A stretch of 60,483 bases of DNA from a candidate division WWE3 bacterium (lineage in GTDB: Bacteria; Patescibacteriota; WWE3; 2-01-FULL-39-13), in contig JALWZX010000035.1 of the NCBI GenBank assembly GCA_027002375.1, positions 1 through 60,483 of the forward strand, given 5' to 3'. Both the position numbers and the translations under genes were made by a program. Of the stretch, positions 4,282-29,616 are shown one piece after another. The stretch's first letter is position 1. Each line of letters starts with the position of its first letter. The notes below the pieces were generated by a model. It did no database searches. It was not told the DNA's origin and saw only the letters and a list, made by a program, of their open reading frames with translations.

Positions 4282-4465
4282 ATATAAATAATAACACGAA
4301 ATCAACAATATTTTCTAATTTAGCATTGTATTTCGTTGCTTTCATTAGCATAAGTTTCTTTAGATTACAAAACCCATCGGTTGAACTAAAAAATGAAATA
4401 CTACGTTTTTATGTAGTTGAACGGTAAATTATCAATTCAGGGCAATTTATACTATAATTTACTTA

Positions 4466-5077
4466 ATGATAAATGAATCAATATTAAAAAAAGATTTTAC
4501 AGAAATAAAAGATTTCTTTAGTGAAGAAACCAAAAATCACGCACTAATACGATTCTTTCTGCTAATACTATTTGTAATTGCATATTTCTTGTTCGAAACA
4601 TATAAATTAGGGTTAGACAAAGGTTTTCTCGTTTCGCTTCTAACATGGGCGTTCTTTGTGTTATGTACACCGATTGCAGATGCAGGCTTTTTATTAGCAT
4701 TTCCAATAAGATTATTAATGGGAATTCGAATGGTCTATACGCAAATATTTGCATATATACTGGCTGTGATATTGGTAGCATATACGTTTATGTACAGTTC
4801 ACAAATGTTCAGCGAAACAGTGTTGCTAAAATTATTCAAGCAAATATTAACCACACCATATCCATATTGGGCAATACTAATAATCTCGTTTATTGGAACA
4901 ATCTTTTCAATTGTGTTTGGTGATGAATTAATAGATGTCAGTACACACAAAGAAAGAAAAAAGTATCACAAACACAAGAAAAAATACAGGATGATAGCAA
5001 CTATTTTTATGGTTGTAATGACAATCACACTGTATTACTTTTTAATAAATCAAATAGGTGTGCAATTATTCATTTAA
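4466..5077 (+). CDS. Hypothetical polytopic membrane protein
   Basis: About 5-6 hydrophobic helices and a Lys-rich loop (HKERKKYHKHKKKYR). No family recognised. Confidence 0.5.
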   Translation: MINESILKKDFTEIKDFFSEETKNHALIRFFLLILFVIAYFLFETYKLGLDKGFLVSLLTWAFFVLCTPIADAGFLLAFPIRLLMGIRMVYTQIFAYILAVILVAYTFMYSSQMFSETVLLKLFKQILTTPYPYWAILIISFIGTIFSIVFGDELIDVSTHKERKKYHKHKKKYRMIATIFMVVMTITLYYFLINQIGVQLFI

Positions 5078-9432: not shown

Positions 9433-10166
9433 TTAACCACTTAAAAACTCTTGAACAATTTCTAAAAAATCATTTGGCCTATCTATGTGTGGGTGATGTT
9501 TTGCGCCCCAAACAATTCGCACATCACTATTTGGTATAAGGTTGTGAAAAACTTTGTCAGGTTCACATTTAGAATCTCGTCACGACTTCCCCATAAAATT
9601 AAAGTTCGGCAATTAATATTTGGTAGTAGAGTTTCAAAATTCTCGTTAACGACTTTAATAAATATATCTTTCATTGTGCTTGCGGTTTTAAAGTCAGAAC
9701 TCCCGATATGTTTACTTACAGCTCCTTTTACCATTTTAGGCGAAAAAGTTTTTAACGGTTTATACAATTTAACTAACGCCTTCTTATATTTTGATGTGGA
9801 ATTCACACCTGCACTATCAACTAAAATCAGATTCTCCACAATGTCATATTTAGATGCTAGCAAAATACTAATTCGCCCACCAAACGAATGCCCAATTACA
9901 TTAAAATTCTTAATGCCTAAGGAATTTGTAAAATCAATTACAAACCTTGCATAATCATAAGTGCCCCATGTTGTAACAGGTTGCGCGCTTTGTCCAAACC
10001 CAGGAAGATCTACCAAAACAATCTTATAATTCTTAGAAAGAGCAGTAGAAATATTACGCCAGTCGGCCAAAGAACATTTCCAACCATGAAGAATTACAAT
10101 AACAGACGAGTTATCTTCACCATAAAGTTCATAATTTATTAACAAGTCATTAATTGTTGTAAACAT
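9433..10166 (-). pseudogene. Alpha/beta hydrolase interrupted by a single frameshift (or assembly indel)
   Basis: Main frame has HGW, GHSFGG and ILWGSRDE, then ends in atypical sequence at 9483. An adjacent frame, open from 9579 to the TAA at 9433-9435, reads PDKVFHNLIPNSDVRIVWGAKHHPHIDRPNDFLEIVQEFLSG. That is a typical hydrolase C-terminus and includes the catalytic His. Confidence 0.6.
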
Positions 10167-10167
10167 A

Positions 10168-10259
10168 TATTCGTTTTTATGGCCAACACCAGTGCTTGCA
10201 TTAAGCTATAGTAGCGCTAAGTGTATTTGCCCAAATCACACTATCCATAAAAACGAATA
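10168..10259. repeat. 15-bp perfect inverted repeat (TATTCGTTTTTATGG / CCATAAAAACGAATA) around a 62-nt spacer
   Basis: Read directly. Lies between the fic stop (10437) and the hydrolase start (10166). Confidence 0.6.
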
Positions 10260-10436
10260 GTCATGCTTATTATCACAAAAGTTAGGTTGTACTTAACATA
10301 GTTATGGGAATATATAGTTAGTATTTGGTGTTAACCATTATTAAGTCAACTTTATAATAATTGACACCATTGTAAAGTTTAGTGTGTAATGTGGAATAAA
10401 GTTTCAGAAGCTTTATGCAAATTTCTTCAGTCAAAT

Positions 10437-11567
10437 TTAATCAATAAAAGCTTCGAAGTATTTTCGATAGATGTATTTCCTAGCATAATTTTTCTCATTT
10501 TTATAAATTTCTAATATTCCTAATATTATAAGTCTGTCAATAACCTTTTGAGCACCAGGTCGTGTAAAACCAGTTGCGCTCATAACACTTTTTGTATTTA
10601 CGATTGGATTAGAAAATAGAAAATGCAGTACTTTCATACTACTTTCTGACTCTCTTTTGGTTAACATTTGTATTTTCTCCATGTCTTGATCACGTATAGC
10701 ACGAATTTTTTTTGATACAACTATACTGTCTTGTGCTGTTTGTTCAACAGCATCTAAGAAAAATTCTAGCCATACAAAAACATTGCCATTATGATAGGCA
10801 TTAAGTCGATCGTAATAGAGTTGTCTATGCCTTTTAAAAAAGGATGACAAAAACAAAACTGGATTCTCTAATAATTCCTTTTTTAAAAAGAGAAAAGTGA
10901 TTAACAGGCGACCCGTTCTACCATTGCCGTCCAAAAATGGGTGAATAGTTTCAAATTGTGCGTGAGCATATGCTATGTGAATGAGTGGTGTCGTTATTGT
11001 ATCGTTATGCAAAAACTTTTCTAAATCATCAAGTGCCTTGTGCATATACATTGGCGGTGGTGGTACAAAGATTGCATTTTTAAGTGTTGCTGCACCAATC
11101 CAGTTTTGGGATTTACGAAATTCTCCAGGAGTAGATGGCTGTGTTTCTCTCGCTCCTTGCATTAACTCCTTGTGTAATTCTTTAATAAATCTTAAAGATA
11201 CAGGGAAGTTTTTTAGTCTTTCAATGCCATAGTTTAGCGCCTTAATATAAAAAATTATGTCATAAGCGTCACCACCTTTATTATCTCCCGCGGAAATTTC
11301 AAGTGCATCCGCCATGGTTGCTTGTGTTCCCTCGATTTGAGATGACGATGTAGCATCTTTAAATGCAAACATTTTAAGGAAAAATTCTATATCAGGTAGT
11401 GTTTGTGTTATTCCATCTAATTTCCCTATTAACCTTTCCGCGTTAGCTGCTTTATTCAGCAATCGTTGATCAACCAGGAACATTTCCTTCTGTGGAAATG
11501 ACTCTGGTAAAGAAGCAATATATCCTGATGGTTGTTTTACTTTTTTGCAAATTATAAATTTTTTCAT
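10437..11567 (-). CDS. Fic/DOC family protein (AMPylase-type) with Fic_N-like N-terminus and C-terminal winged-helix-like region
   Basis: Canonical motif HPFLDGNGRTGRLL and the upstream SSSQIEGT motif. Confidence 0.9.
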   Translation of the reverse strand: MKKFIICKKVKQPSGYIASLPESFPQKEMFLVDQRLLNKAANAERLIGKLDGITQTLPDIEFFLKMFAFKDATSSSQIEGTQATMADALEISAGDNKGGDAYDIIFYIKALNYGIERLKNFPVSLRFIKELHKELMQGARETQPSTPGEFRKSQNWIGAATLKNAIFVPPPPMYMHKALDDLEKFLHNDTITTPLIHIAYAHAQFETIHPFLDGNGRTGRLLITFLFLKKELLENPVLFLSSFFKRHRQLYYDRLNAYHNGNVFVWLEFFLDAVEQTAQDSIVVSKKIRAIRDQDMEKIQMLTKRESESSMKVLHFLFSNPIVNTKSVMSATGFTRPGAQKVIDRLIILGILEIYKNEKNYARKYIYRKYFEAFID

Positions 11568-16019: not shown

Positions 16020-17537
16020 ATGGCAACAGCGAAAGCTAAACCCAACAAAAAAGATTCTGCCAAAACGTCAAAAGAAGCAAAAGCTTTAAAAAGTAAGAAA
16101 AATGCACCAAAGAAGCAGATGAAAAAAGATAAAAAAGAAACTAAAGCTACGAAAGATAGTGTTTCTAAGAGTAAAACCGATACTAAAGTAAAGGTTAAAG
16201 CAAGCAAAACAAAAGAGCCAACAACAAAAGACACAGGCAAAAAAGATACAGAAAAATCACAGGGGCAACCGAATCTTCGTGATAACCCGAGAATAAAAAA
16301 TTTAGTAAATAAAGGTAGAAGCAAAGGTTTTGTTACGTACGATGAACTATTACGTGTAATTCCAGAAGCTGAAGAAAACATAGAGTTACTAGATGAACTA
16401 TACTCAATTTTCATTGAAGAAAAAATTGATGTAATGGAAGATCTGTCTGAAGTTGAATCTGTAAAAGATTTAGATCTCTCAGCATTAGAAAAAGAATTAA
16501 AAGAAACAACATTAGAAAGTACGTTAGCAAGAGATGTAACAGCTGACCCAGTAAGAATGTATTTAAGGGAAATCGGACGTGAAAACTTATTAACGGCAGA
16601 ACAAGAAGTAGAACTCGCCCAAATGGTAGAGGCACATGACTATGAACTAGCAGTTCAAAAACTCATAAAAGAAGGTGCAAAAAAACCAAGAATAGATAAA
16701 ATCGCAGCGATAATGATAGAAAACTATGAAGGCAAAAAAAGACAAATAAAAAGAGCACAAGAAGCAAAAGAACAATACGAAAGATTTAAAGCAGAAGGAA
16801 AATTATTTAAAATGAGAAAAGCACGAAAAAGATTAATAAACGCAAACTTAAGACTTGTTGTTTCAATTGCAAAAAGATATATGAACAGAGGTTTAACATT
16901 CTCTGACTTAATTCAAGAGGGAAATATAGGTTTAATGAGAGCGGTAGACAAATTTGACTGGCGAAGAGGATTTAAATTCTCAACTTATGCGACATGGTGG
17001 ATACGACAGGCAATAACAAGAGCAATCGCTGATCAAGCAAGAACCATAAGAATTCCCGTGCATATGATAGAAACAATAAACAAACTAAAAAGAGTTCAAA
17101 GAGAACTAGAGCAAAAATATGAAAGAGAGCCAACAGCAGAAGAAATAGCAAAAGTAATGGACATAGAACCAGAAAAAGTTGAGGAAATACTGAAGATTTC
17201 CCAAGAACCAAACAGTCTACAAACCAAAATAGGGCCAGAAGGTGACACAGAATTATCAGAATTTATAAGTGATGACAATACAACAGGACCAGAAGATTTA
17301 GCATCAGAAGAATTATTGAAAGGCCATATAGGTGAAATCTTAGACACATTAAACGAAAGAGAACGAAAAGTTTTAGAATTAAGATTTGGTTTAGTAGACA
17401 ACAAGCCAAGAACATTAGAAGAAGTAGGAAAAGTTTTTGGCGTTACAAGAGAGAGAATAAGACAAATAGAAGCAAAAGCTTTAAGAAAATTGAGACACCC
17501 ATCAAGAAGCAGACAACTAAAAGATTATTTGGCGTAG
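16020..17537 (+). CDS. rpoD: RNA polymerase sigma-70 factor RpoD with ~90 aa Lys-rich N-terminal extension
   Basis: Region 2 ([32 protein letters not shown]), region 3, and region 4 ([20 protein letters not shown]). Confidence 0.95.
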
Positions 17538-17539
17538 AT

Positions 17540-17700
17540 GTATAATGAGTTTGGGGAATTCTAACGATTTCTTTCTTAGGAACTCGGTGGTGAAATCAGT
17601 TTGGGGTTAGCAGTTTCTGTGTGAGAAACTTGCTTGTGGAATCGGTCGGTGGGGGGGGTAGCAGTTTGTCTGCACGAAATTCGTGGGTGAAATTGGTTAG
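17540..17700 (+). repeat. G-rich imperfect tandem repeats (~45-50 nt period, 3-4 units), including a G8 run at 17651-17658
   Basis: Recurrent blocks TAGCAGTTT..., GTGG(T)GAAAT.GGT and AGTTTGGGG (17549 and 17599). Conspicuously G-rich compared with its surroundings. Confidence 0.5.
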
Positions 17701-17707
17701 ATTCAAA

Positions 17708-17737
17708 TGAGGCGGGGCGTAAAAACGCCCCGCCTCA
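17708..17737 (+). terminator. Intrinsic-terminator-like hairpin after rpoD
   Basis: 12-bp GC-rich stem TGAGGCGGGGCG / CGCCCCGCCTCA with loop TAAAAA. The downstream T-tract is weak (AATTTTC). Confidence 0.6.
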
Positions 17738-17858
17738 CATCTAAATTTTCAATATAGAAATTTACAATTAAATTCGGTAAAATAACCGATGTACATTGAC
17801 AGACACAGTTAATCAACTACAATATTCGAATAGTCATTGTTTGATATTCATATACTAT

Positions 17859-17933
17859 TCCGCGGTAGCTCAATGGTGGAGCAGGAAGCTGTTAACTTCA
17901 AGGTTGCTGGTTCGAGTCCAGCCCGCGGAGCCA
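17859..17933 (+). tRNA. tRNA-Asn (anticodon GTT), CCA encoded
   Basis: Acceptor TCCGCGG/CCGCGGA, D-arm GCTC-AATGGTG-GAGC, anticodon loop CTGTTAA and T-arm GCTGG-TTCGAGT-CCAGC. Confidence 0.9.
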
Positions 17934-19409
17934 TTTATTAGTTTTTTGTGTTTCATAGATAACATCAAACGGCTTATTTAGTGTAAACACAACATTTTCT
18001 TTACTTATTTCTAAGTTCGCAAACACTAATTTCAGTAGTTCATTCTTTTTTTCTGTGTTTGCCTTGTTATATATATCATAAGCTCTTTTTGAAAGCGATA
18101 ATATTGTACTGGCGACAAAATAATAGTCTCTATTCATCTCTGATAGTTTGGTTATACGTTGTTCGATTTCTTTCAATCTATGTTGTTTTTTATCTACAAA
18201 ATTATCAAACATTTCCTTTGTAATACTATCGTTAATGAATTTTGCCATTGCTTTGTCCATTTCGTCTGTTATTTTATTCTTTTCTGTTTGCAACCTTCTA
18301 ACTTGTGTGTTGTAATAAATCGTTTTTTCCTTGTGACTTTGCTTTAACCTTTCTATTACATCATTTATCATTTCTTCTGGTAGAGAAAGGTGTTCTAAAA
18401 CATCCTTTACAGCGTTGTCTTCTATAAAATTTTCCCTTACATGTGGATGCGATTCACAAATTCCTTTATAATTTGTACAACGTCCGTACACATGCCCTTT
18501 CTGTGTATAAAAACTTATACTACAACCACACTCAGCACATCTTGCCAATCCTTTGAATATGAATGGCTTTGACATGTTTTTATAAGGATTTGTGGTTTTC
18601 TTATGTTTTATTTGTTGAACCCTATCAAACAGTTCCTTGCTAATTAGTGGGTAATAGTTATGTTTATATAGATTATTTTTAACTCGCATATAACCATAGT
18701 AGAAAGGGTTGTTTAACATATAGGCGATTTGACTTCTTGATAAAGGTTTTCCCGATTTTCTATTTCTCAGTCCTTCTGTTTTAGCAAGTTTCCTTAGTTT
18801 AGATAATGAATATCTATTTGTCGCATACTCTTTAAATAACTTAATAACTATTTCAGCATATTCGGGGTCGGGTACTATCCATTTTGTCCCATCCTCTTTT
18901 TTAGTATTTTTATATCCTATTGGGGCTTTAGTTATCCATCGCCCTGTTGAATACATATTCTCAAATGCCCTCTTAACATTATCTGATATCGCATCAGAAT
19001 AATATTTTGCTAAGTTAAGACTTATACCGTATTGAAACTTTTGTGACGCAGGAGAATCACGATTTATGACTGTGTTATCCGATACAAAATGCAACTCAAT
19101 CCTTTCTGTATCTACTAATTGGCTGAGTTTTGCTATTCTTTTGTCAAAAACATTTCTTGTTAATCGGTCAACTTTATCTAAACAAACAACAATGGTTTCA
19201 TACTGGCTAATTTCCTCTATTTTTTCGATAATTTTGTCAAAAGTTTTCCGCTTTGTTTTATAGGCACTTTCATCAATTGAATATTCAGCTACTATGTCTA
19301 AATTGTTGTGTTTACAATATGTTTTCAGTCTCTTCAATTGAGCTGGTAAAGAATTATTCGCCTCTTTTTGTTCAGGGGTTGAAACTCTTGCAATGATTAA
19401 AGCTTTCAT
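17898..19409 (-). CDS. Large serine recombinase (serine integrase)
   Basis: N-terminal resolvase motif MKALIIARVSTPEQ, a recombinase domain, a Cys-rich zinc ribbon (CAECGCSISF...GRCTNYKGIC) and a coiled-coil tail. The last 12 codons are antisense to tRNA-Asn. Confidence 0.9.
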   Translation of the reverse strand: MKALIIARVSTPEQKEANNSLPAQLKRLKTYCKHNNLDIVAEYSIDESAYKTKRKTFDKIIEKIEEISQYETIVVCLDKVDRLTRNVFDKRIAKLSQLVDTERIELHFVSDNTVINRDSPASQKFQYGISLNLAKYYSDAISDNVKRAFENMYSTGRWITKAPIGYKNTKKEDGTKWIVPDPEYAEIVIKLFKEYATNRYSLSKLRKLAKTEGLRNRKSGKPLSRSQIAYMLNNPFYYGYMRVKNNLYKHNYYPLISKELFDRVQQIKHKKTTNPYKNMSKPFIFKGLARCAECGCSISFYTQKGHVYGRCTNYKGICESHPHVRENFIEDNAVKDVLEHLSLPEEMINDVIERLKQSHKEKTIYYNTQVRRLQTEKNKITDEMDKAMAKFINDSITKEMFDNFVDKKQHRLKEIEQRITKLSEMNRDYYFVASTILSLSKRAYDIYNKANTEKKNELLKLVFANLEISKENVVFTLNKPFDVIYETQKTNKWLRGLDSNQQP

Positions 19410-19425
19410 TTTTATAAGATTTTTG

Positions 19426-19454
19426 CTTGTAATAATTAAAGGTATTATTACAAG
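19426..19454. promoter_or_regulatory. 11-bp perfect inverted repeat (CTTGTAATAAT-N7-ATTATTACAAG) between the divergent integrase and XRE genes
   Basis: Read directly. Position is typical of a repressor operator in a divergent switch region. Confidence 0.4.
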
Positions 19455-19520
19455 TTAAACTAAAGATATGTTACTTATAGTCCGTAGACTAATAGTACAC
19501 TAATCGCAATACTTTAGTAA

Positions 19521-19751
19521 ATGACTAAAGCTTATAGCGACGATAAAATTAAAAAACAATTTGGAAATCGAGTTCGTTTATTGAGAAAAAAACTTAACCT
19601 GTCTCAAGAAGAACTTGGTTTCCAAACAGGATTAGATAGAACTTATATATCAGGCATTGAAAGAGGGTTTAGAAATCCATCTTTAGTTAATATTAACAAG
19701 CTTGCTAAGGCACTAAAGGTGGATTTAAAAACCTTATTTGACTTTAACTAA
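19521..19751 (+). CDS. XRE-family helix-turn-helix transcriptional regulator
   Basis: LRKKLNLSQEELGFQTGLDRTYISGIERGFRNPSLVNINKLAKAL is a classic Cro/CI-type HTH. Confidence 0.85.
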   Translation: MTKAYSDDKIKKQFGNRVRLLRKKLNLSQEELGFQTGLDRTYISGIERGFRNPSLVNINKLAKALKVDLKTLFDFN

Positions 19752-20911
19752 CCAGACTCATCACTGCTTATTACATCTGATAACTTTATGGGTTCATAGC
19801 TATATAAACTTCGGGATATCTTATAAACGAATGGTTGATGGGTTAATTCTTGTGATTGTATTCTATTAATCTCTTTAATTGATGCATCGATGTAGGAGTC
19901 AATATGTGTTTCTGTGTAATAACTGGATAATATGTTCTTTAAGTTTCTGATTCCAAACTGATTCATATGATAGTTTAGGTAAGCTAAAGCTAATAATTTC
20001 TGTAGTCTATAAGTTTTTTTTGTAATCTCTGATGATACCGTTAATATATGAACTATATCTAGTGGTGTTTGACTGTATATGAGTGGATTGTTTTCTAAAA
20101 TATATTTGTCCCATACTAAATTAAGAATTTTCATTGAAACAGATTCATTAAAAACATCTTTGAAGTGTACTTCTGTTTGTTCATATCCTATTTTGCTAAA
20201 GAAATTAGTAATTTTCTTTCTATTTGTTAATCTTACTTCAAATCTAAGCAAATTTATTTTATTTCCTTTAAACAGGGGTAGTTGATGATATTGTAGTTGC
20301 TCTTTGTCAACAGATGCCCTCTTGTTTTTATAGTAGTCCTTTATTTTGTCGTAAAAGACAATTTGCCAGGAGCCGTTATCGAAATATAGTGCATGTCCAT
20401 CATTTTTAAATAATTTAGTTGTTTTATGCAGGTGTTTTGTTACATTGGATTTGTTAATGGTTTCTAAAATTTTGTTTGTATTACTATTAACTTGAATGTT
20501 TTTACCATAATGTACAATAATTACTTTTGATTTTACTAAAGTATCTCTATCTACATTTACACCCATTGCGAAAATCTTTTTTTGTAGGGTGTGTATTACT
20601 TCTGAAAACTGATTTTCTGACAATTCGTCGATATTGTTCCCATATAGTAGTTTAGGGCACGAGAATTCTATAGTTAAGTTAAATTCTCTTTCTTTTTTAT
20701 GTGAATTCCATCTATAAATTAATGTTAGTCTAGGAAAATATTTATCAGATTTTTTAGCATTATAGGGGAATTTTTTAAACCTATACGGTTTAAGCCCAGT
20801 CTTATAATATTTGTAATCATCATTTGTAATCCCAAAATTATTTGGATTTGTAATTTTATATTGAGTTTTAGTTAATTCTAGCTTTACAGTATCAATCATA
20901 ATTGTTGCCAT
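19748..20911 (-). CDS. Putative rolling-circle-type replication initiation protein (phage/plasmid gene II / Rep_trans-like)
   Basis: N-terminal MIDTVKLEL and LRFEVRLTNRKK resemble remembered features of phage CRI/gene II-type Rep proteins. This is motif-level only. Confidence 0.45.
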   Translation of the reverse strand: MATIMIDTVKLELTKTQYKITNPNNFGITNDDYKYYKTGLKPYRFKKFPYNAKKSDKYFPRLTLIYRWNSHKKEREFNLTIEFSCPKLLYGNNIDELSENQFSEVIHTLQKKIFAMGVNVDRDTLVKSKVIIVHYGKNIQVNSNTNKILETINKSNVTKHLHKTTKLFKNDGHALYFDNGSWQIVFYDKIKDYYKNKRASVDKEQLQYHQLPLFKGNKINLLRFEVRLTNRKKITNFFSKIGYEQTEVHFKDVFNESVSMKILNLVWDKYILENNPLIYSQTPLDIVHILTVSSEITKKTYRLQKLLALAYLNYHMNQFGIRNLKNILSSYYTETHIDSYIDASIKEINRIQSQELTHQPFVYKISRSLYSYEPIKLSDVISSDESG

Positions 20912-21011
20912 CTAACTCAATTAATAATTCAATATAAGCAATAAGGATATCGCTAACCTTAGGTTTCAAGTTCCCATTATGTTTGCCTAATTTGTACGCC
21001 TTTTTATTCAT
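20892..21011 (-). CDS. Possible 39-aa small ORF overlapping the Rep start
   Basis: ATG at 21011 reads MNKKAYKLGKHNGNLKPKVSDILIAYIELLIELDGNNYD. Its TGA overlaps the first Rep codons. No other support. Confidence 0.2.
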   Translation of the reverse strand: MNKKAYKLGKHNGNLKPKVSDILIAYIELLIELDGNNYD

Positions 21012-21105
21012 ATGTGAATTTTAACCGAAAGGATTGTGGTGGCAGTTGAGTTTCAATGGGTTTCAGTTTGTTGACAAGGATGTTTTACAAAAAGTTTGTA
21101 TTTGG

Positions 21106-22101
21106 TTATTTCTTCCAGTGCGTATATCTTCCTATTCTTCGTTGTTCTTTGATGTATCGTTTTTTATATTCCTTTTGGCATTCCTTATCGCCGCAGGTTT
21201 TGTTATTAATCCTTTTAGGTACATATGTATTTTTGCATATCGGGCATACATACCTTTTATGTAAGTTTAGTAATTTGGTTTGTATCGTGTGTTGTATTTT
21301 TAGCCCGTTCAACCTATTTAAATGAAATAAACCCCAACTAGCCAAAAAGTACATGTAATCTGCTTTAGTTAGAACTTCGTTGTTTATGCACTTTACATAC
21401 GCCCATTTAAACTTTGTATCTAAATTAGCTAGTGAGCCAAACCCCAATAAAGTATAAAATACACTTTCTAGTTCATCTTTTGTTAGATTACATTTATTCA
21501 ATAATTCTTCAGATTTGGACTTACTGAAATATAAGTTCCGTAGTGAATAGTATTCTTTTGAGAATTCCGTTTCATATGGATAATCATCATCCGAGTTACT
21601 TAAATTCAACATATCGTTTCTTTCTGCCTCTACTTTGTCGGTAAATTTTTGTATTAACATTTTTGTTTTATAATAGATTAATACGAATTTAGTATATTTA
21701 GTCAAAAATTCGCTGTAAACATTCCTTTTACTTTTTAGCACATTTATATTCTGTCCTTCTTGTACTTTTTCAATATTTTCAATGTTCATATGCATCAACT
21801 TATGTAAATTTGGATATATTTTTAATAACTGAAATACAATTGTAATTTGTGGTCTTGAGTAATAAAAAACCGAGCCACTATCGGTTTGTGCTTTCATTAT
21901 GTAATCGTTGGGAACAAATGTATCTGTCTTTACACAAGGGTTCAGTAGACCTTCCTGCCTTAGTTGATGAAGGAATTCTTGGTTTATCTTCTGATGTATT
22001 CTCTCTTGGAGGTACATGTTGCATAAATCAATAAACCGACTTTCATTTGTTAAATCGGTTGGTGTAAAAGGAAATCCATTCTTTGTATAGTATATCTTCA
22101 T
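21106..22101 (-). CDS. Hypothetical protein with C-terminal zinc-ribbon and basic tail
   Basis: CPICKNTYVPKRINNKTCGDKECQKEYKKRY. Lies upstream of, and co-oriented with, the Rep-like gene. Confidence 0.5.
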   Translation of the reverse strand: MKIYYTKNGFPFTPTDLTNESRFIDLCNMYLQERIHQKINQEFLHQLRQEGLLNPCVKTDTFVPNDYIMKAQTDSGSVFYYSRPQITIVFQLLKIYPNLHKLMHMNIENIEKVQEGQNINVLKSKRNVYSEFLTKYTKFVLIYYKTKMLIQKFTDKVEAERNDMLNLSNSDDDYPYETEFSKEYYSLRNLYFSKSKSEELLNKCNLTKDELESVFYTLLGFGSLANLDTKFKWAYVKCINNEVLTKADYMYFLASWGLFHLNRLNGLKIQHTIQTKLLNLHKRYVCPICKNTYVPKRINNKTCGDKECQKEYKKRYIKEQRRIGRYTHWKK

Positions 22102-22249
22102 TACTTCATTGGTATTCTCTTTTGTATGAAATGTTAAGGTTTATATGGGTTTTGTTTGATAGGTTTACTTATAGTCTACACTTTGTTATATTTTATGTAA
22201 ATTGTAAGCAATATTATTAGTGTAAATATCGAAAAGGAGGTGAATATCA

Positions 22250-22780
22250 ATGAACAAATTTTTAAAATGGGGTGGGATAGTATTCGCTGTTCTTTTCGTG
22301 TTTGCAGTAATTGGTGCTGCTATGAGCGATGAATCATCGACAACCAGTAGTACACAAGATAATCCAGCGAAAACATCAGAAAAGAAAGAAAACACAACTC
22401 AACCCGTGAATACTGACGACAAGAACCAACAGGAAGTAAAAAAAGAAGAACCAAAAAAAGAAGTATTAGAAGTAAATGCTAGAACATTTGTGGGAGAGTT
22501 TGATAAGAATCAATTAGCTGCTGAAGAAAAATACAAAGGAAAAATTATAAAAACATCTGCGTATATAGATAACATATCGGAAGATATTTTAGGAAATCCG
22601 TTTCTATCATTGAATCCTTCTAGTGATAAATATTATGTAGGAACCAGTATGCAATGCTATTTTGACAACAAAAGTGAATTGACAGATTTAGAAAACGGAC
22701 AAAAGGTTACTGTTATTGGTAAGGTAGATGAACAAAGCTTAGGTATTATTTCAATAAAGGATTGTAAGGTTGTTGAATAA
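22250..22780 (+). CDS. Membrane-anchored OB-fold (tRNA_anti-like family) protein
   Basis: Strong SD AAGGAGGTG and N-terminal TM GIVFAVLFVFAVIGAA. The C-terminal pattern ARTFVGEFDKNQLAAEEKYKGKIIKTSAYI...VTVIGKV is typical of tRNA_anti-like OB proteins. Confidence 0.6.
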   Translation: MNKFLKWGGIVFAVLFVFAVIGAAMSDESSTTSSTQDNPAKTSEKKENTTQPVNTDDKNQQEVKKEEPKKEVLEVNARTFVGEFDKNQLAAEEKYKGKIIKTSAYIDNISEDILGNPFLSLNPSSDKYYVGTSMQCYFDNKSELTDLENGQKVTVIGKVDEQSLGIISIKDCKVVE

Positions 22781-22785
22781 TTTAT

Positions 22786-22820
22786 TCTGGCGGGTGAGAA
22801 ATTTGTTCTTACCTGCCAGA
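22786..22820 (+). terminator. Intrinsic-terminator-like hairpin after the OB-fold gene
   Basis: 13-bp stem TCTGGCGGGTGAG / CTTACCTGCCAGA. It has two G-U pairs that form only in plus-strand RNA; loop is AAATTTGTT. Confidence 0.5.
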
Positions 22821-22895
22821 TATAAATCATTTATTACTAAGATAGCGATTGTTTGTGTTTACACATAATGTATAGTACCCTATATTTTAAGTTGT

Positions 22896-24041
22896 ATGAA
22901 CGAACGCCACATTATAAATAGAATCCGACAGATTGTTGAAAGCTTTTTGAATGAAAATAGGGCTATTGAGGACCTAACCTTTAGTACTCTGCTTGAATAT
23001 TTTCATCTTGAGGAATCGAATATTTCAGATGAAGTTTTACGAAATTTAATATCTGATATCATCTTAATTGAAACACAAACGAATGCAGATAGTAGCGTAG
23101 TGGCAAAAAAGATACTTAATGTATTGAAAAACATGCCAACAGAATATGAATTTGTGTTTAGGTTACCTCAGAACAATAAATTACACAAGGTAGTTAGCAT
23201 ATGCGATAAAATCGCTTTACATAAGGTAGATAGGAGAAATGCAAAAGTTTATACAGCACCATTTAGTACATACGAGCATTATCTAAAGAAGATGATATTT
23301 GGATATAGTCTGATTAGCGTTGGGGATTGTGTATTAACCGTTAAGTGCAATGGGTATGTAGATAAAATGGGTTATTCGCACCTAATAGATATTATCAATC
23401 CAGAATTTGTTCGTGATGTGATAGTAGGGATATATATTGCATTAGGTGTTCTTAAACCTAGAAACACATTGCCAGCCATATTGAGTTCTAATAACATATA
23501 TAGTATTTATGACAATAATGGTGAATTAGTACGCTACAATAACGAAACAGATGAATATGATGCGATTCTTAATAAATATGAATTTGCTGATGTAGATAAC
23601 AATATTTTTGAGCTCGGAAATAATGTAGTAACCAATTTGTTTTGTGCAACACAACATGAAGATAATAAATCCAATCGGATGATAAAAAATGGTGTGTTCT
23701 GGTTTGTCCGTAGCATAGGAAATAAAGATAATCATCTTAAAGCAGTCTTTACTGTAGCTGCATTTGAGTATTTAACTGGATTGCCAAGGAATACTAAGAA
23801 AGAGGAATTTAGAGATGTAGTATCTAAAGCTATAGGCGATGAAGTTTGTGGTATTAATGTTAGTGATACTCTTAAAAGCCTCTACTTATTTAGAAATGAC
23901 ATTGTCCATGGGGATGAAGACATTATTGCCTCGAACTATTATAATGTTTCTGGTAGTATAGATAAATCTGTACTTGTATACAACAGCATTCGCCTTTTGG
24001 AACGATTTATTGCTAGTCAAATCTTTGATTCTTACCGTTAG
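22896..24041 (+). CDS. Hypothetical protein with C-terminal HEPN-like Rx4H motif (ApeA/Abi-like)
   Basis: LYLFRNDIVHG (R333-H338, nt 23892-23909) matches the RNxxxH HEPN RNase motif and lies in a helical C-terminal region. Confidence 0.5.
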   Translation: MNERHIINRIRQIVESFLNENRAIEDLTFSTLLEYFHLEESNISDEVLRNLISDIILIETQTNADSSVVAKKILNVLKNMPTEYEFVFRLPQNNKLHKVVSICDKIALHKVDRRNAKVYTAPFSTYEHYLKKMIFGYSLISVGDCVLTVKCNGYVDKMGYSHLIDIINPEFVRDVIVGIYIALGVLKPRNTLPAILSSNNIYSIYDNNGELVRYNNETDEYDAILNKYEFADVDNNIFELGNNVVTNLFCATQHEDNKSNRMIKNGVFWFVRSIGNKDNHLKAVFTVAAFEYLTGLPRNTKKEEFRDVVSKAIGDEVCGINVSDTLKSLYLFRNDIVHGDEDIIASNYYNVSGSIDKSVLVYNSIRLLERFIASQIFDSYR

Positions 24042-24156
24042 ATTCAAAAGGTTATGGTGGATTAATAATAAGTTGTCTATTAACTTTCCAGTAGGTTAAA
24101 GATTTGTTACTCATTGCCATACAAATTAATAAGTTATATAGTCTAATTAATATATT

Positions 24157-24579
24157 ATGGGAAAAAAGAAGCAATCAAAAGATTGGTACATAGCGGTAAC
24201 ACACTTGTTAACGAGTGGCTTTCTTATATTCATACTTAATTTGGTTGTAATATTTTTAGCTATTTTCCTATTTCGTATAAATTTGAAAAATAATACTACA
24301 GTTTTTGTAATTATTACATCAGTTATTTGGATTTTAAGCATTTGGCCTGCGGTTATGTATTCTGCTAGATATATAAACAAAGCGTATATTGTGCAAGATA
24401 GTGAAAATATAGCAAAATTATCAACGATGTATTTCGGAATTTTAGGGGGCGTCTTCAGGTTAATAGTTTTGTTTACAGAAACAGCTCTTCTTATATCGAT
24501 TATGAAGTTAGCTTTTTTTGCGATTGGTGTTAGTGTATTTTACACATTAAGTAAGATGTATATTAAAAATGTTACGTAA
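24157..24579 (+). CDS. Small 4-TM membrane protein (possible distant paralog of 25782..26198)
   Basis: 140 aa with four hydrophobic helices. The central loop SARYINKAYIVQDSENIAK resembles SATRFFFKLYTVENPERMK in the other protein. Confidence 0.55.
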   Translation: MGKKKQSKDWYIAVTHLLTSGFLIFILNLVVIFLAIFLFRINLKNNTTVFVIITSVIWILSIWPAVMYSARYINKAYIVQDSENIAKLSTMYFGILGGVFRLIVLFTETALLISIMKLAFFAIGVSVFYTLSKMYIKNVT

Positions 24580-24925
24580 GATTAATTGTGGTAATAAATT
24601 TCTAAAAATTATGAAACAAGAGTCATTGATTATATTCTAAAGTACAGTAACGCAAATTCAAGATGGTACAAGTAATGTTTTCCAGGTGGATATATTGTTA
24701 CATTTATGAAACTGTTTTTCATAAATCAAGAGTAAGTGATAGTTTATATAGATATGTTAGGAACGGTTGCTCTGGTTGGTTTTGGCTACCATAAGCAATT
24801 CTTTTATAAGTTTTTATTGATTAGATAGTTGTATAATTTTGAATCTAGATGTGACGATAGCTATTTCGGTTATACTTGAATATTTGTTTTTCGGGTATCG
24901 TATATGATAATATTTATGAAAACTT

Positions 24926-25732
24926 ATGAAAATTATTCAATTTGACGAATCGGATAAGGAATTTTCACGCGCACTTGCCAAGGAGAGATTAATACTACCA
25001 TTTTTTGCATTCCCTAGTTACAGAGATTTTTCATATTTCATGTGGGATTATGCAATTACATTATTTATTGGTGGAATACTAGACAGAGACCAAGCGGATA
25101 AAATATTCTTGGTAGGACCATCTGAGGCATATCGAGAAAGAAAACCCCCTTGGAAAAGATATAAATGGGATACAAACAAAAAGATAGAGACCATACAGAA
25201 GGCGAAAGTATTATCTTTATATATCATAGAAAATTTACTAAGATTAGATGCTTTTGAGTTGCCGTATCATTGCAGGAAAGCCTTAGGTTTCGGGTTTATT
25301 GAGAATACCAAACTAGAACTACATAAGATTACAATTGAGTGGGTGCTAGTTTATTTAACAGAGACGATATTAGTATTAAACAGAAAATCAGAAATCAAAT
25401 TGCCCTACGCTACTATGTTTTTAAACTATGTTGTTAACGAATTGTTAGAATACGTTGAATACAGCGCAGAGGAAAATTCTGAGAAAGTTAGTGAGGTATT
25501 TGTAAACGCAACTCGCAAGTACTTAGATTGTGCAGATGAGGTAAATAGTTGCAATATTTACTCTAAAATATCCGACGAGATTGCTAATGCGCTTAACACA
25601 GAAGAGTATGTCATCAAAGACTGTGTGAAGAATTACTTTTTGAACGATTTGTTTCTAAAAATGGATATTGAGGGGATAGCAAAATTTACAAAGCGTGGGT
25701 TGTTAATTAGCTTTCTGAAAAGTGGTTTCTAA
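24926..25732 (+). CDS. Hypothetical soluble helical protein
   Basis: 268-aa ORF with no recognised motif. Flanked by the two small 4-TM genes. Confidence 0.5.
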   Translation: MKIIQFDESDKEFSRALAKERLILPFFAFPSYRDFSYFMWDYAITLFIGGILDRDQADKIFLVGPSEAYRERKPPWKRYKWDTNKKIETIQKAKVLSLYIIENLLRLDAFELPYHCRKALGFGFIENTKLELHKITIEWVLVYLTETILVLNRKSEIKLPYATMFLNYVVNELLEYVEYSAEENSEKVSEVFVNATRKYLDCADEVNSCNIYSKISDEIANALNTEEYVIKDCVKNYFLNDLFLKMDIEGIAKFTKRGLLISFLKSGF

Positions 25733-25781
25733 CTTCTGGTGTAGTATTGTGTTTATTCTTTATTGATGATATATATAATAT

Positions 25782-26198
25782 ATGCGAGTGAAGAAGGTTA
25801 AAAACACAAATGCAGGTGCACTGTTGTTCATGCTATTCTTCTTAGCCAACTTCTTTCTATATAATATTATATTTCTTATCATTTCTATTACTCTTTTTGG
25901 GTTCATTTTGAACGATTTTTATTTATCATGGACAATTGGAAATATTGTAACAATAGGGATTATTTACTTGTCTATACGTTCAGCCACTCGATTCTTTTTT
26001 AAATTGTATACTGTTGAGAATCCAGAAAGGATGAAGTCTATAACAGCTTTTTTGTTTTTCGTATTCAGTTTAATCAGTTTGGTTTTTTATTATACAATTG
26101 AGTATGCACTTTTCGGTTTGTTGGGAATTATTATAGATGTTCCTATATTTTATATTATTCTAAATAATCAAGTTGACGCATACAATAAAGTTGATTAG
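25782..26198 (+). CDS. Small 4-TM membrane protein (possible distant paralog of 24157..24579)
   Basis: 138 aa with the same topology and loop motif as the 140-aa protein. Confidence 0.55.
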   Translation: MRVKKVKNTNAGALLFMLFFLANFFLYNIIFLIISITLFGFILNDFYLSWTIGNIVTIGIIYLSIRSATRFFFKLYTVENPERMKSITAFLFFVFSLISLVFYYTIEYALFGLLGIIIDVPIFYIILNNQVDAYNKVD

Positions 26199-26667
26199 GA
26201 GGGGTTAATATGTTAGTACCAGTATTGAAAACATGCTCGTGGTAAATACAAAAATAGCAGATATTTGCTTTTATTGATATAAATATTTATTTGATGATTT
26301 ATCTATAATTGTTTGGTCATTAATTGGTGAGAAAATGTACAACTAAAATAAAAGAAGTTCTCAACACGTAGCAAATAGGTCTGTAAGGGGGGGCGTAATG
26401 CAGAAGTAATATGAAATAAGGTAATCCGTAATAAATTGGTAATTTGTGTGCATGTGATATGTATTACTATTAATTAGTGGTTGTATGAGATATGATTCAG
26501 TTGTATGTGAACCAATGAAGGTATGTTTGCCCGCAACTACAAATGACTAGGTATTATATATGTGAAATTAGATAGACAGATGTTTATCTAGTAAGATGAA
26601 ATATTGATTGCGGGCTTGATTAATATAGTTATTTTTGTACGTATAGAATAAGCTTAATAGACATATT

Positions 26668-27096
26668 CTAATAGGATGGGACATATCCATGCCTGCAATC
26701 GTAATTTCCCTTTATGTATCCATTATAGAATTTGCCATAAGAATTAGCCATTTTAAACTTATACCACACGGATTTAGGAAGACCACAGTAATGATAGTAT
26801 GTTGATTTTAGCTTTATAATCATATATCTGTTCTGTGCGTCATACCAAGCTCCTCTAATGAACGAACTTCTATATGTATCCAGATATTCAAATCTGCCAT
26901 TATTTATATTTACTGGTGTATCCCTGTATTTTATCCATATATAATTATTATTGTATGTGTATTTTGAATTGTATTGTGGGCTTGCATTCGTGGTTTTTGA
27001 AGTGTTTGCAACCGTAAACAGTAGTGAAATGATAATGACAGTGCTTGATAAGAGTAGTGTAATTGTTAATATGCATCCCTTTAATAATTTAGTCAT
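26668..27096 (-). CDS. Membrane-anchored KTSC-domain protein
   Basis: AWYDAQNRYMIIKLKSTYYHYCGLPKSVWYKFKMANSYGKFYNGYIKGNY fits the KTSC pattern. Start moved to ATG 27096 because the track start at 27123 is TTG. Confidence 0.6.
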   Translation of the reverse strand: MTKLLKGCILTITLLLSSTVIIISLLFTVANTSKTTNASPQYNSKYTYNNNYIWIKYRDTPVNINNGRFEYLDTYRSSFIRGAWYDAQNRYMIIKLKSTYYHYCGLPKSVWYKFKMANSYGKFYNGYIKGNYDCRHGYVPSY

Positions 27097-27174
27097 TCTG
27101 ATATTATATGTAATATAACACAAGAATATCGGTAGTATAAATTCTTTTTATGTTAGTTATATGGTATACAGTAG

Positions 27175-27963
27175 ATGAGTACATTCACTCAAAGAAATAA
27201 AACATCGAAAGAATTCTCTGGTCCAGAAGAAGCCTCTCCCCTTTTAAGGATGAGAATAATCAGAATATATGAAAAATATACTAAATCGGTAGTTATGGAT
27301 GCATATAACGATGATTATATAAATGATAGTATGTTTTATGACGACTTGTGTATACATTTTGGTGTGAAGCCGTTTTACTACGACAGTTTAACTGATGAGG
27401 ATAGATTTGAGTATGGTGATGTGTTTGATTTTGTTGAATTGTTATATAAAAGAGCTGTTGATGAATTGAGCCACGAAAGAAGAAAGGGTGTTTTGCGTGA
27501 TATACAATACGCGTTCGAACTTTCTGGGTCTGTTTACACCTTTAGCGAAGATGGCCATGTAATACTTAATTCTGATGATTTTTTTGCAGAATTGATTGAT
27601 GATGTATATGAAACCGCTATATTAGATGATTTAGATGATTTATACAAAGATAATATAAATGGTTTAATAAACAGAACGAAGCATCCACAAAATATAATTG
27701 TTGATATGGCACAGATGTTAGAGGGGTTTTTACAAGAACATTATGATATTCAGGACAGTGGTGATGTAGATAAACTTAGAAATTATAGTGTACATCCAAC
27801 ACATATTAAGATTATAAAGAAATTATACGGTTTTCGTGGCAGTACATCAGCACATTTCAAAAAACAAAGACCAGGTGAAGCTGATGCACTTTGGTTTGTA
27901 ACAGCAGTTCTAAATGAGATTAGATATTTGAATAGCAAAAGACATGAACCTAATGTACAATAG
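27175..27963 (+). CDS. AbiJ-like protein (AbiJ-NTD-like N-terminus plus HEPN-like Rx4H C-terminus)
   Basis: N-terminus MSTFTQRNK...LLRMRIIRIY resembles the FSxRNG...LRNxLWN start of AbiJ N-terminal domains. LRNYSVH (nt 27778-27795) is an RNxxxH motif. Confidence 0.45.
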   Translation: MSTFTQRNKTSKEFSGPEEASPLLRMRIIRIYEKYTKSVVMDAYNDDYINDSMFYDDLCIHFGVKPFYYDSLTDEDRFEYGDVFDFVELLYKRAVDELSHERRKGVLRDIQYAFELSGSVYTFSEDGHVILNSDDFFAELIDDVYETAILDDLDDLYKDNINGLINRTKHPQNIIVDMAQMLEGFLQEHYDIQDSGDVDKLRNYSVHPTHIKIIKKLYGFRGSTSAHFKKQRPGEADALWFVTAVLNEIRYLNSKRHEPNVQ

Positions 27964-28083
27964 TTACAAACTCCTTAGCGAGTTCAAAAACTGTCTCATC
28001 TACAGTTCGTAACTCGTCAACTAACTGGAGCCATTTTTATAAATAGCATAATTTAATGAAGAGTATATATATAGAATTTATAC

Positions 28084-29517
28084 ATGTTATCGTGCGAACC
28101 TATCGATATTAATGACTCTGGATTTTTAAACTATCCGATTGAATCCAAGTCAATAGAATATAAAACATCTTTTGCATGGCCTGAAAAGAAAGATTTTCTT
28201 CCAGATAATCAAAAAGCACAAGAAGTTATAAGAACTATTCTTGCATTATCAAATACACGAGATGGTGGCAAAATAATTATAGGAGTGGATCAGGACAGAG
28301 AACATAAGAAACTGACCCCTGCTGGTGTATCAGAAGAGATTTTAAAAACTTATGATCATGACAGTATTTTTGAGATGGTTAGATATTTTGGAAATCCACA
28401 ACCAGAGTTCGAAACCAAGTGTCACAAATGGAAAGATATGAAGTTTATTATTTTTCATGTAGAAGGTTTTAAACAAGGCCCTGTTATAAGTAAGACAAAC
28501 ATAAAAAAGAATATAGAACAAATAAAATCTTCTGCAATATATATCCGAACTCACAAACCAGAGACAAAAGTGTTAGATAAACCCGAGGAATTATATAATT
28601 TAATGAAGTTAACTACTGAAAAGAATGCCAGATGGGTACAGGACTTATGTGTCAGTAAAAATAATAAGACTGCAAGTAAAGGATTTAAGGACAAGAAATC
28701 GCAGAAAAAAACAGCTGTAAGGACTAATGAGCAGAAACTATTTGGACAAAAGAAATCCCGTCAACCGTGTAGCACATCGTTGTTGTCGGATTTGAATGAA
28801 GACTCTGAGATTCTTGTTAATACCATTAAATCTAAAGGATATTGGATGGTTAGTGTTTACCCAATTAGTAATCATAAAAAATTGATACCCTCGAATAAGC
28901 TAGTAGATATAGTTGATAACGCTCAAGTATCGCTTCGTGGTTGGTATTATCCACACATTACTAGAAAAGAAAGTATGCCTTATAAAATTGTTGAAGGTAT
29001 TGAACATCGAACTAACTCAGGTGAATATAAGGAATTCTGGCGTATGAATACAAATGGTAACTTCTCTATCATTAAATCTTTGAAAGAAGATTGGATGTCA
29101 GATGATGTTATACAATCCTATATATTAGCCAAAGATATTAAATTGGATGGGAAATGGCTCGGTATTGTGAATGCTTTATATTCAATTACTGAGTTTTTTG
29201 AATTCGCTAGACGACTATCAATGCTTGAATTTTATGTGGCAGGGATTGTTGTTTGCATAGAATTATATGATATATACAAGAGATACCTTGTTGCCGATTC
29301 CTACAAAAAAATGCCATTTTATCCAACAAAAAAATATGTTTGTCAAGAGCAAAGGCCTTTTAGGTTTAGTTACACTTTCGAAAACAATGCTACAGACGAT
29401 TTTAGAAATAAAGCATTTGATGCATTTTTGGAGCTATTAGATTTGTTCAATTGGAAGAATATTCCTGTTGAGAATTTACGGGATGATCAAGTACAGTTCC
29501 TTGAAGGTAAGTCTTAA
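28084..29517 (+). CDS. AlbA_2 (Schlafen-like) domain protein
   Basis: ESKSIEYKTSF...VIRTILALSNTRDGGKIIIGVDQD matches the AlbA_2 signature (ES..EfK ... AfaNt.GG.l.iGv.d). The C-terminal half is unassigned. Confidence 0.55.
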   Translation: MLSCEPIDINDSGFLNYPIESKSIEYKTSFAWPEKKDFLPDNQKAQEVIRTILALSNTRDGGKIIIGVDQDREHKKLTPAGVSEEILKTYDHDSIFEMVRYFGNPQPEFETKCHKWKDMKFIIFHVEGFKQGPVISKTNIKKNIEQIKSSAIYIRTHKPETKVLDKPEELYNLMKLTTEKNARWVQDLCVSKNNKTASKGFKDKKSQKKTAVRTNEQKLFGQKKSRQPCSTSLLSDLNEDSEILVNTIKSKGYWMVSVYPISNHKKLIPSNKLVDIVDNAQVSLRGWYYPHITRKESMPYKIVEGIEHRTNSGEYKEFWRMNTNGNFSIIKSLKEDWMSDDVIQSYILAKDIKLDGKWLGIVNALYSITEFFEFARRLSMLEFYVAGIVVCIELYDIYKRYLVADSYKKMPFYPTKKYVCQEQRPFRFSYTFENNATDDFRNKAFDAFLELLDLFNWKNIPVENLRDDQVQFLEGKS

Positions 29518-29616
29518 AGTGTGTAGATTTAATCCTATCTATGGTTTGCATCTTTGTTAATTTTAGGTTTTTATTAGTTTGATATTTAGTTATGATAGTG
29601 CTATAACATACCTATA

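Follow-up and report, generated by a model that had tools for sequence, protein, structure and literature searches.

A large serine recombinase gene that overlaps tRNA-Asn, and a predicted attP site across its 3′ end, in a candidate division WWE3 bacterium

Introduction

Large serine recombinases (LSRs), or serine integrases, are widely used as genome-engineering tools, and their natural targets are thought to lie mostly in protein-coding or intergenic DNA. A 2026 survey found that RNA genes are preferred by tyrosine rather than serine integrases (PMC13626063), and an earlier note on the DNA studied here, which took it as a premise that LSRs normally avoid tRNA genes, agrees with that survey. 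Here we describe an LSR gene that runs into a tRNA-Asn gene in the 60,483-nt contig JALWZX010000035.1 of a candidate division WWE3 bacterium (assembly GCA_027002375.1; 811 kb in 77 contigs). This whole stretch is referred to as the window, and coordinates are positions within it unless another locus is named. The gene very probably belongs to an integrated, non-phage element of 10.1 kb, formed when the LSR recombined an attachment site (attP) lying across the 3′ end of its own open reading frame (ORF) with a host site (attB) at the end of tRNA-Asn.

The window LSR resembles the characterised LSRs A118/LI Int, phiC31, Bxb1, TP901-1 and SPbeta SprA in having a resolvase domain, a recombinase domain and a zinc ribbon with an embedded coiled coil. 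As with these enzymes, identity between its att sites is short, and an attP motif is 5 bp more distant from the centre than its counterpart in attB (PMC3783163). It differs from them in targeting the extreme 3′ end of a tRNA gene rather than an ORF or intergenic site, in that the half-site in the host flank is not conserved, and in that attP lies within the integrase reading frame.

To our knowledge, the only recombinase genes documented to span their own attP encode tyrosine recombinases (Mx8 and SSV1). The integrase of the Myxococcus phage Mx8, whose attB sites lie in tRNA-Asp genes, exchanges about 100 residues on integration, compared with about 25 in the window LSR. In the part of PMC6070905 that treats Mx8 (citing Tojo 1996 and Magrini 1999), attP is described as lying within int, and integration as creating a new int 3′ end and a prophage-specific variant of the protein (IntP and IntX). 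The window LSR gene likewise spans attP and its product would be altered by integration, but it encodes a serine recombinase, whereas the Mx8 enzyme is a tyrosine recombinase with a long core. Archaeal integrases of the SSV1 type, also tyrosine recombinases, are encoded by genes that span attP and are partitioned on integration into a tRNA gene. There, in contrast to the window LSR, the split removes a large part of the enzyme, and crossover takes place inside the tRNA body with duplication of a long segment.

Islands that tyrosine integrases place in tRNA genes typically duplicate tens of nucleotides of the tRNA, whereas the window element, with its recombinase of a different family, duplicates just 5–10 nt. 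What it shares with such islands (the sublocation classes of Williams 2002; Islander/TIGER) is that the tRNA is restored, that a displaced fragment lies at the distal end, and that tRNA loci are hotspots with tandem arrays. Small cargo elements beside tRNA genes are also known as the tycheposons of Prochlorococcus, of which 27 out of 937 carry an LSR (bioRxiv 10.1101/2020.12.28.424599); unlike the window element, the LSR-bearing ones come without a described att anatomy or ORF–tRNA overlap. In the papers searched, neither an LSR that targets tRNA 3′ ends nor an LSR ORF spanning attP is described. We take the enzyme to be a tRNA-end-targeting LSR with a reading frame that spans attP; its anatomy is well supported, and the functional consequences discussed below are inferred.

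Results

In its integrated form the LSR gene (17898–19409, minus strand) encodes a protein of 503 amino acids that starts MKALIIARVST. The earlier note had taken the product for a large serine integrase, and this is borne out by matches to Pfam (Resolvase PF00239, 2e-19; Recombinase PF07508, 2e-13; Zn_ribbon_recom PF13408, 5.8e-8) and to the PHROG integrase family phrog_95 (1.5e-77), as well as by conserved columns in an alignment of homologues. R8 and the serine nucleophile S10 are invariant across 46 homologues, and the zinc-ribbon cysteine columns C291, C294 and C311 are also invariant. Homologues, mostly from Patescibacteria, are just 41–47% identical, and the window LSR sits on a long branch (0.87) of the family tree, with no more than 47% identity to any homologue. 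Between the LSR and the TP901-1 and A118 chains only distant sequence matches were found (E ~5e-4). For structure modelling a homologue with a native tail, P0012 (44% identical), stood in for the window LSR. Recognisable in its AlphaFold2 model, which has a mean predicted local distance difference test score (pLDDT) of 86, are the catalytic and recombinase domains, helix E, the zinc ribbon and a coiled coil of two helices (residues 343–448). The two helices, of antiparallel length (343–391 and 397–448; pLDDT 78–95), lie between zinc-ribbon strands.

ARAGORN places tRNA-Asn(GTT) at 17859–17933 on the plus strand, and the LSR ORF overlaps it by 36 nt (17898–17933). The final codons of the ORF, TGG CTC CGC GGG CTG GAC TCG AAC CAG CAA CCT TGA, are the reverse complement of tRNA nt 40–75, so that the antisense relationship of the last 12 codons pointed out in the earlier note holds both by codon comparison and by the ARAGORN call. 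The tryptophan codon TGG is the antisense of the tRNA-encoded CCA. Residues 1–492 make up the LSR body, and the tail, residues 493–503 (WLRGLDSNQQP), comes from tRNA antisense.

This tRNA-Asn(GTT) is the only tRNA-Asn that ARAGORN found in the whole 811-kb assembly. It sits downstream of dnaG and rpoD, and the rpoD–tRNA-Asn linkage is kept in many relatives. Because the gene is present in a single genomic copy and its linkage to dnaG and rpoD is conserved, we regard it as host DNA. The DNA directly downstream of it (first 80 nt) is different in all ten relatives compared (L102–L111, among genomes G001–G014), and in G006 this flank encodes the tail of another LSR of the family (...ETEDTKNEIWLRG). 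The same-genus genome G001 has tRNA-Asn without the element, its similarity to the window coming back only at ~29590, and the element is also absent downstream of tRNA-Asn in most family-level relatives. The tRNA-Asn locus is an insertion hotspot across this bacterial family.

At the tRNA-proximal end, the attL core is GGAGCCA at 17927–17933 (tRNA nt 70–76). Read on the LSR strand this is TGGCTCC, of which the minus strand of the window holds only one other copy, at 28033–28027, followed by AGTTAGTTGACGAGTTACGAACTGTAGATGAG. The two copies form a direct repeat of 7 nt, or 10 nt counting the following TTT, and the distal copy of GGAGCCA (28027–28033) repeats the last 7 nt of the tRNA. Past this distal copy the LSR frame is open for 27 codons; the stretch 27950–28026 (minus strand) reads WLQLVDELRTVDETVFELAKEFVTIVH-stop in frame with TGGCTCC, and the encoded WLQLVDELRTVDE... 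fits the consensus of those homologues that do not end in a tRNA. Because the LSR-frame reading fits this non-tRNA tail pattern, we identify the 28027–28033 site as attR, in which the core is the displaced 3′ tip of the tRNA (B′ side) and 27950–28026 is the P arm of attP together with the displaced native LSR tail. The P arm carries GTTGAC at +12 and ACGAAC at +23. The P′ arm lies inside the LSR coding sequence at 17934–17975 (minus strand; codons for PFDVIYETQKTNK), with a spacing of 45 nt between the KxPFD motif and the tRNA end that is fixed throughout the family. On this evidence the element would span ~17927–28033, about 10.1 kb, with its body at 17934–28026. The tRNA is intact after integration, and the displaced fragment GGAGCCA lies at the distal end beside the P arm. 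Both junctions are also present in the Logan contigs assembled separately from the public runs X1 and X2, of which X1 may be the source sample, from a hydrothermal vent.

In the attP reconstructed from these ends, WL-RGLDSNQQP is replaced by WL-QLVDELRTVDETVFELAKEFVTIVH, in agreement with the conserved tail of homologues without a tRNA. For attB, reconstruction gives an intact tRNA-Asn and, after it, TTTTTATAAATAGC...; the predicted circle junction carries ...ACTAATAAATGGCTCCAGTTAGTTGAC... and the predicted empty site ...CCGCGGAGCCATTTTTATAAATAGC.... A search of the window for a longer repeat of the tRNA 3′ half (34 or 17 nt, allowing 3 mismatches) found none. A candidate degenerate T-arm remnant at ~29521–29548 was rejected, as it was not distinct from background in a whole-window local-alignment scan. 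No inverted copy of either arm was found in the window (P arm with up to 7 mismatches, P′ arm with up to 10), and none of the window's inverted repeats involves the att regions.

For 20 other family members (21 LSRs including that of the window), as much as 18 kb of upstream DNA was searched for sites of the attR type, the requirement being positions 1–5 of the local tRNA antisense and [FLIMV]R[TNS] at codons 8–10. Such sites were found upstream of 11 of the 21 LSRs, with 18 hits in the forward direction compared with 2 in the reverse-complement control and 0.65 in shuffles. The element sizes they imply are mostly 7.6–12.4 kb, with sites 14–18 kb away belonging to loci that have several sites; a matching attR was present at 7.4 kb in L012. 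Comparison of attL with attR in the 11 elements showed mismatches at position 0 (the T of TGG) in four and at position 6 in two. Identity within individual elements covers 5–10 nt, and the block common to all 11 is positions 1–5. Crossover would take place within this 5-nt block, which corresponds to 17928–17932 in the window (tRNA nt 71–75).

To place the overlap in the context of the family, an alignment-based scan with one genome per species was used, which gave 80 homologous loci; a scan with a single protein gave none. In 65 of these 80 loci, which come from Patescibacteria and Dependentiae, the distance between a tRNA and the LSR end is nearly constant (within 3 nt). An opposite-strand tRNA at such a distance was called by ARAGORN in 54 loci (Asn 26, Gln 9, Asp 7, Glu 6, Arg 4, Tyr 1, His 1). 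The 3′ end of the called tRNAs lies 45–49 nt past the lysine of the conserved KxPFD motif, the offset being identical for 33 of 52 called tRNAs and deviating by no more than 3 nt for 50 of them. As the tRNA offset from KxPFD is nearly fixed in homologous loci, the overlap of LSR and tRNA is not a matter of chance. The C-termini of homologues repeatedly read ...[WLM]L[RP][GRDE], followed by a stop or by xDSNxxP, the antisense of the T-loop. A distinct LSR of 543 amino acids in genome G003, a family-level relative (L104, 1509–3140), only 24% identical, ends WLRGLDSNQQP-stop in its own tRNA-Asn. The earlier note had named shared C-terminal residues among homologues as a finding that would speak against it. 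Homologues do share such residues, but they also end in tRNA genes, which supports the note instead.

LSRs with the same tRNA partner tend to cluster in a tree of 74 family members, on which the partner changes at least 11 times. About ten homologues without a tRNA share the tail W-L-[PRQ]-x-[LWV]-D-x-[FL]-R-T-x-x-W; they do not form a separate clade, each being sister to a tRNA-linked LSR. At L132 two LSRs (10001–11536 and 16246–17742; 33% identical) are arranged in tandem at one tRNA-Asn, and the LSR with a non-tRNA tail lies 4.7 kb upstream of the second, which ends in tRNA-Asn. Since the reading frame of the distal LSR continues into the proximal element's P arm, its tail is still of the native type, and this non-tRNA tail is thus the internal junction of a tandem array. 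Near-identical P-arm sites (TGGCGGCCCCTAGTTGACACGTTTAGGAAC) occur five times at L130 (1346, 2889, 3688, 4530 and 5242) and twice at L120 (339 and 1297), both from Dependentiae/TM6. They lie upstream of an LSR at tRNA-Asp, spaced 0.7–1.5 kb apart around toxin–antitoxin-like cassettes. These integron-like arrays of attR/attP-type sites, together with the L132 tandem, suggest repeated insertion beside the tRNA.

The T-loop sequence TCGAAC is near-universal in tRNAs. Within the tRNA (B) arms of the family it starts at +18 in 49 of 50 cases, and all 22 P arms have a look-alike (T/A/G-x-G-R-A-A/C) that starts at +23, recognised in 20 of them by the search pattern and in two by eye (ACGAAC in the window and GAGAAC in L062). 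The outer motif is 5 bp nearer the centre in the B arm than in the P arm. This agrees with the LI/A118 integrase, for which Rutherford et al. described a zinc-ribbon motif 5 bp further out in attP than in attB and proposed that the shift serves to discriminate the two sites (PMC3783163). By analogy, the zinc-ribbon domain of the window LSR may read the T-loop motif of the tRNA arm.

Integration exchanges the end of the LSR reading frame. The reconstructed attP encodes an LSR of 519 amino acids, compared with 503 in the integrated state, and the native tail of about 25 amino acids is now found at attR, at a distance of 10.1 kb, and has remained in frame and open. It fits the family pattern W-L-x-x-L/V-D-x-F/L-R-T, and a tail pattern FRTxxWxxIxxDL recurs among attR P arms. 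Although these P arms are at present outside any LSR ORF, their LSR frame is open for a median of 29 codons, compared with 3.5–4 in the other two frames. The tail frame of the P arm appears to be under selection. One possibility is that the integrated, 503-residue form has lower or altered activity, as for the Mx8 integrase. The earlier note had offered two explanations of the overlap, a tRNA-directed att site or a C-terminus specific to the integrated state. The first is supported by attR at 28027–28033 and the family-wide location at tRNA 3′ ends; the second also stands, since the residues after WL come from tRNA antisense and the native tail is found at attR. The two are true together.

At 11 further loci of the family a tRNA-like T-arm had been missed by ARAGORN; most of these are tRNA-Asn genes with a group I intron or are cut by a contig end. 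Where tRNA-Asn is split by the intron, the LSR tail reads on into intron sequence (...PIDYTYPxVS). Such tails were considered as attP and rejected, as they represent tRNA-Asn genes with a group I intron (RF00028). The intron (Rfam RF00028, 74–93 bits) lies in the anticodon loop of tRNA-Asn at L004 (7531–7768), L009 (4552–4802) and L024 (7516–7788), and the same arrangement was recognised by sequence in L007, L036, L046, L047, L055 and L067, from several Patescibacteria. The L009 contig, from Parcubacteria, also carries a LOOT RNA (964–1087; Rfam RF03000, 96.5 bits) about 2 kb upstream of the LSR gene.

Discussion

In the reaction that we propose, the LSR would recombine attP, spanning the 3′ end of its ORF, with attB at the 3′ end of tRNA-Asn, with crossover in the stretch made up of the acceptor-stem end, discriminator base and CCA (tRNA nt 71–75). 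The host would supply nearly the whole tRNA and the element would re-supply only its last 1–5 nt, so that the single tRNA-Asn stays intact. The B arm of attB, supplied by tRNA-Asn, would consist of the acceptor 3′ strand and the T-arm, with TCGAAC 18 nt from the 3′ end. The P arm has its look-alike motif another 5 bp outwards, which could let the LSR tell attP from attB by repositioning of its zinc ribbon. The excised circle would then encode the 519-residue LSR with its tail of about 25 residues, predicted to be helical in a homologue, and the integrated copy the 503-residue form, of which the last nine residues are tRNA-antisense.

Several observations weigh against this scheme or parts of it. 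The shared 5-nt block is compatible with a 2-bp crossover and does not pin down the exact dinucleotide. Dyad symmetry of the reconstructed attP is weak (0.29–0.32 complementary, axis 3.5–5.5, against a background of ~0.25), and the dyad scan of reconstructed sites found none in attB. The half-site in the host flank (B′) shows no conservation, an unusual feature among characterised LSRs, and half-sites of this kind often resemble terminator hairpins. The GTTCT/GTCAAC motifs of some relatives are absent from the P′ arm of the window. The P-arm tail of L112 has a stop after three codons, and the tail may thus be dispensable; the native tail of P0012 is modelled as three short helices with pLDDT of only 54–74. 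In the comparison with related genomes that the earlier note had proposed, G001 lacks the element and the flanks differ in all ten relatives compared, but a clean empty attB with the same flank was not found among them. Logan contigs of four runs contain integrated junctions only (both being covered in X1 and X2), and a single weak joint in these contigs, from 17935 to 28113 with a shorter side of 24 nt, was not reproduced. Public metagenome and viral contigs lack the exact attP string, and public metagenome contigs also lack the exact empty-attB string. The circular-junction and empty-site sequences that the earlier note had suggested looking for were therefore found in neither Logan nor public contigs; assembled contigs drop rare variants, and absence from them is weak evidence.

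The alternative that survives best accepts the anatomy and denies the tail swap a function. The working C-terminus would end at about residue 492, the remainder would be tolerated read-through, and conservation of the native tail would reflect only requirements of the P arm at the DNA level. Integrated-state tails range from 3 (WRG) to at least 13 amino acids, their length being set only by where the tRNA antisense has a stop, and the best-conserved tail residues, F-R-T, overlap the DNA motif at +23; the early stop in L112 and the low to moderate pLDDT of the P0012 tail point the same way. On the other hand, the frame is open for a median of 29 codons at attR sites, although it is untranslated there. 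The conserved tryptophan and the I..DL pattern reach 35–60 nt beyond the crossover, past the P-arm motifs found here and outside the usual footprint of an LSR half-site, and arginine codons vary synonymously (AGA, CGA, AGG and CGG) with the arginine itself being kept. We regard a functionless tail as a real contender, though on balance somewhat improbable.

An element that integrated as described and later lost excision, leaving a fixed and immobile relic, is rather unlikely in our judgement. It would account for the failure to find excision or empty-site sequences in the Logan and public contigs searched, and it would fit both the lack of an identified recombination directionality factor and the long LSR branch (0.87) with at most 47% identity to homologues. 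However, the LSR ORF is intact with all the invariant catalytic and zinc-binding residues, attL, attR and the 27-codon tail frame are all intact as well, and absence from contigs counts for little when assemblies lose rare variants.

It is very improbable that the ends are instead the 11-bp direct repeat TTTATTAGTTT (17934–17944 and 29570–29580), which would delimit 11.6 kb inserted after CCA. The repeat exists, and similarity to G001 resumes at ~29590, directly past it. However, a further copy of this 11-mer lies at 2474 (and a 12-mer that includes it at 2473), and 95% of random 90-nt segments of the AT-rich window have a direct repeat of at least 11 nt elsewhere; the boundary at 29570 was rejected as a chance-level repeat. 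If the LSR is joined to the sequence past 29570, its tail resembles that of no family member, whereas the site at 28033 has a family P arm. Moreover, an LSR needs no 11-bp identity between its sites, and 28034–29580, with its AlbA_2/Schlafen gene, may be a separate and older islet. Finally, the near-universal pairing of LSR and tRNA in the family could be taken to mean that the tRNA belongs to the element, as one half of a co-inherited convergent module, but this is hardly credible given that it is the sole tRNA-Asn of the genome, that dnaG–rpoD–tRNA-Asn synteny is kept in relatives with unrelated downstream DNA, that close LSRs are found at different tRNAs with at least 11 partner changes on the tree, and that the element has a displaced tRNA tip at its far end.

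A large clade of LSRs that target tRNA 3′ ends, switching between at least seven tRNA species and apparently using the near-universal T-loop as recognition element, would widen the target range of serine integrases, and would offer related enzymes with conserved, predictable target sites as possible tools. It would also represent a major class of mobile elements with defence-like cargo in Patescibacteria and Dependentiae, about whose mobile DNA little is known. If the tail swap affects activity, control of directionality or stability would be built into a serine integrase. We put forward, as a speculative extension, that the clade is specialised on the last nucleotides of tRNAs, uses the T-loop as outer attB motif and has its own C-terminus rewritten by its own reaction. 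The LSR would then be a state-reporting switch, with the full-length, helical-tailed enzyme made only from the circle and a truncated isoform of altered directionality or activity made from the integrated copy. The host-flank half-site would not be needed, attL would remain a target, and elements and LSR-less cassettes would pile up beside the tRNA; L132 and L120/L130 are candidates for such integron-like arrays.

Gene content and flanking DNA

Next to the LSR gene, and divergent from it, the element encodes an XRE-type helix-turn-helix regulator (19521–19751, plus strand). It is followed by a conserved family protein of 387 amino acids (19748–20911, minus strand), which gave no Pfam, PHROG or NCBIfam match and is 34% identical (E 2e-39) to a protein of the L132 element (3810–4934), another element of the LSR family. 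Further along are an ORF of 331 amino acids (21106–22101, minus strand), an OB-fold/Sie-like protein (22250–22780, plus strand), orphan ORFs (22896–26198), a KTSC-domain protein (26668–27123, minus strand) and an AbiJ_NTD4 protein (27175–27963, plus strand). No capsid or terminase genes and no tyrosine integrase were found among the genes of the element. Outside attR, before similarity to G001 resumes at ~29590, lies an AlbA_2/Schlafen-like gene (28084–29517); the region 28034–29590 may be an older islet at the same hotspot.

On the other side of the LSR gene, a consensus scan found a promoter-like site for the tRNA at 17796–17823 on the plus strand (TTGACA, a 16-nt spacer and TACAAT; 11 of 12 matches), and the sequence around it is partly conserved in G001. 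Transcription from this site would head towards the 3′ end of the LSR gene. A small hairpin with a T-rich tail is present at 17774–17789 on the minus strand, just beyond the tRNA on the LSR strand, and could act as a terminator for LSR transcripts that cross the tRNA in antisense.

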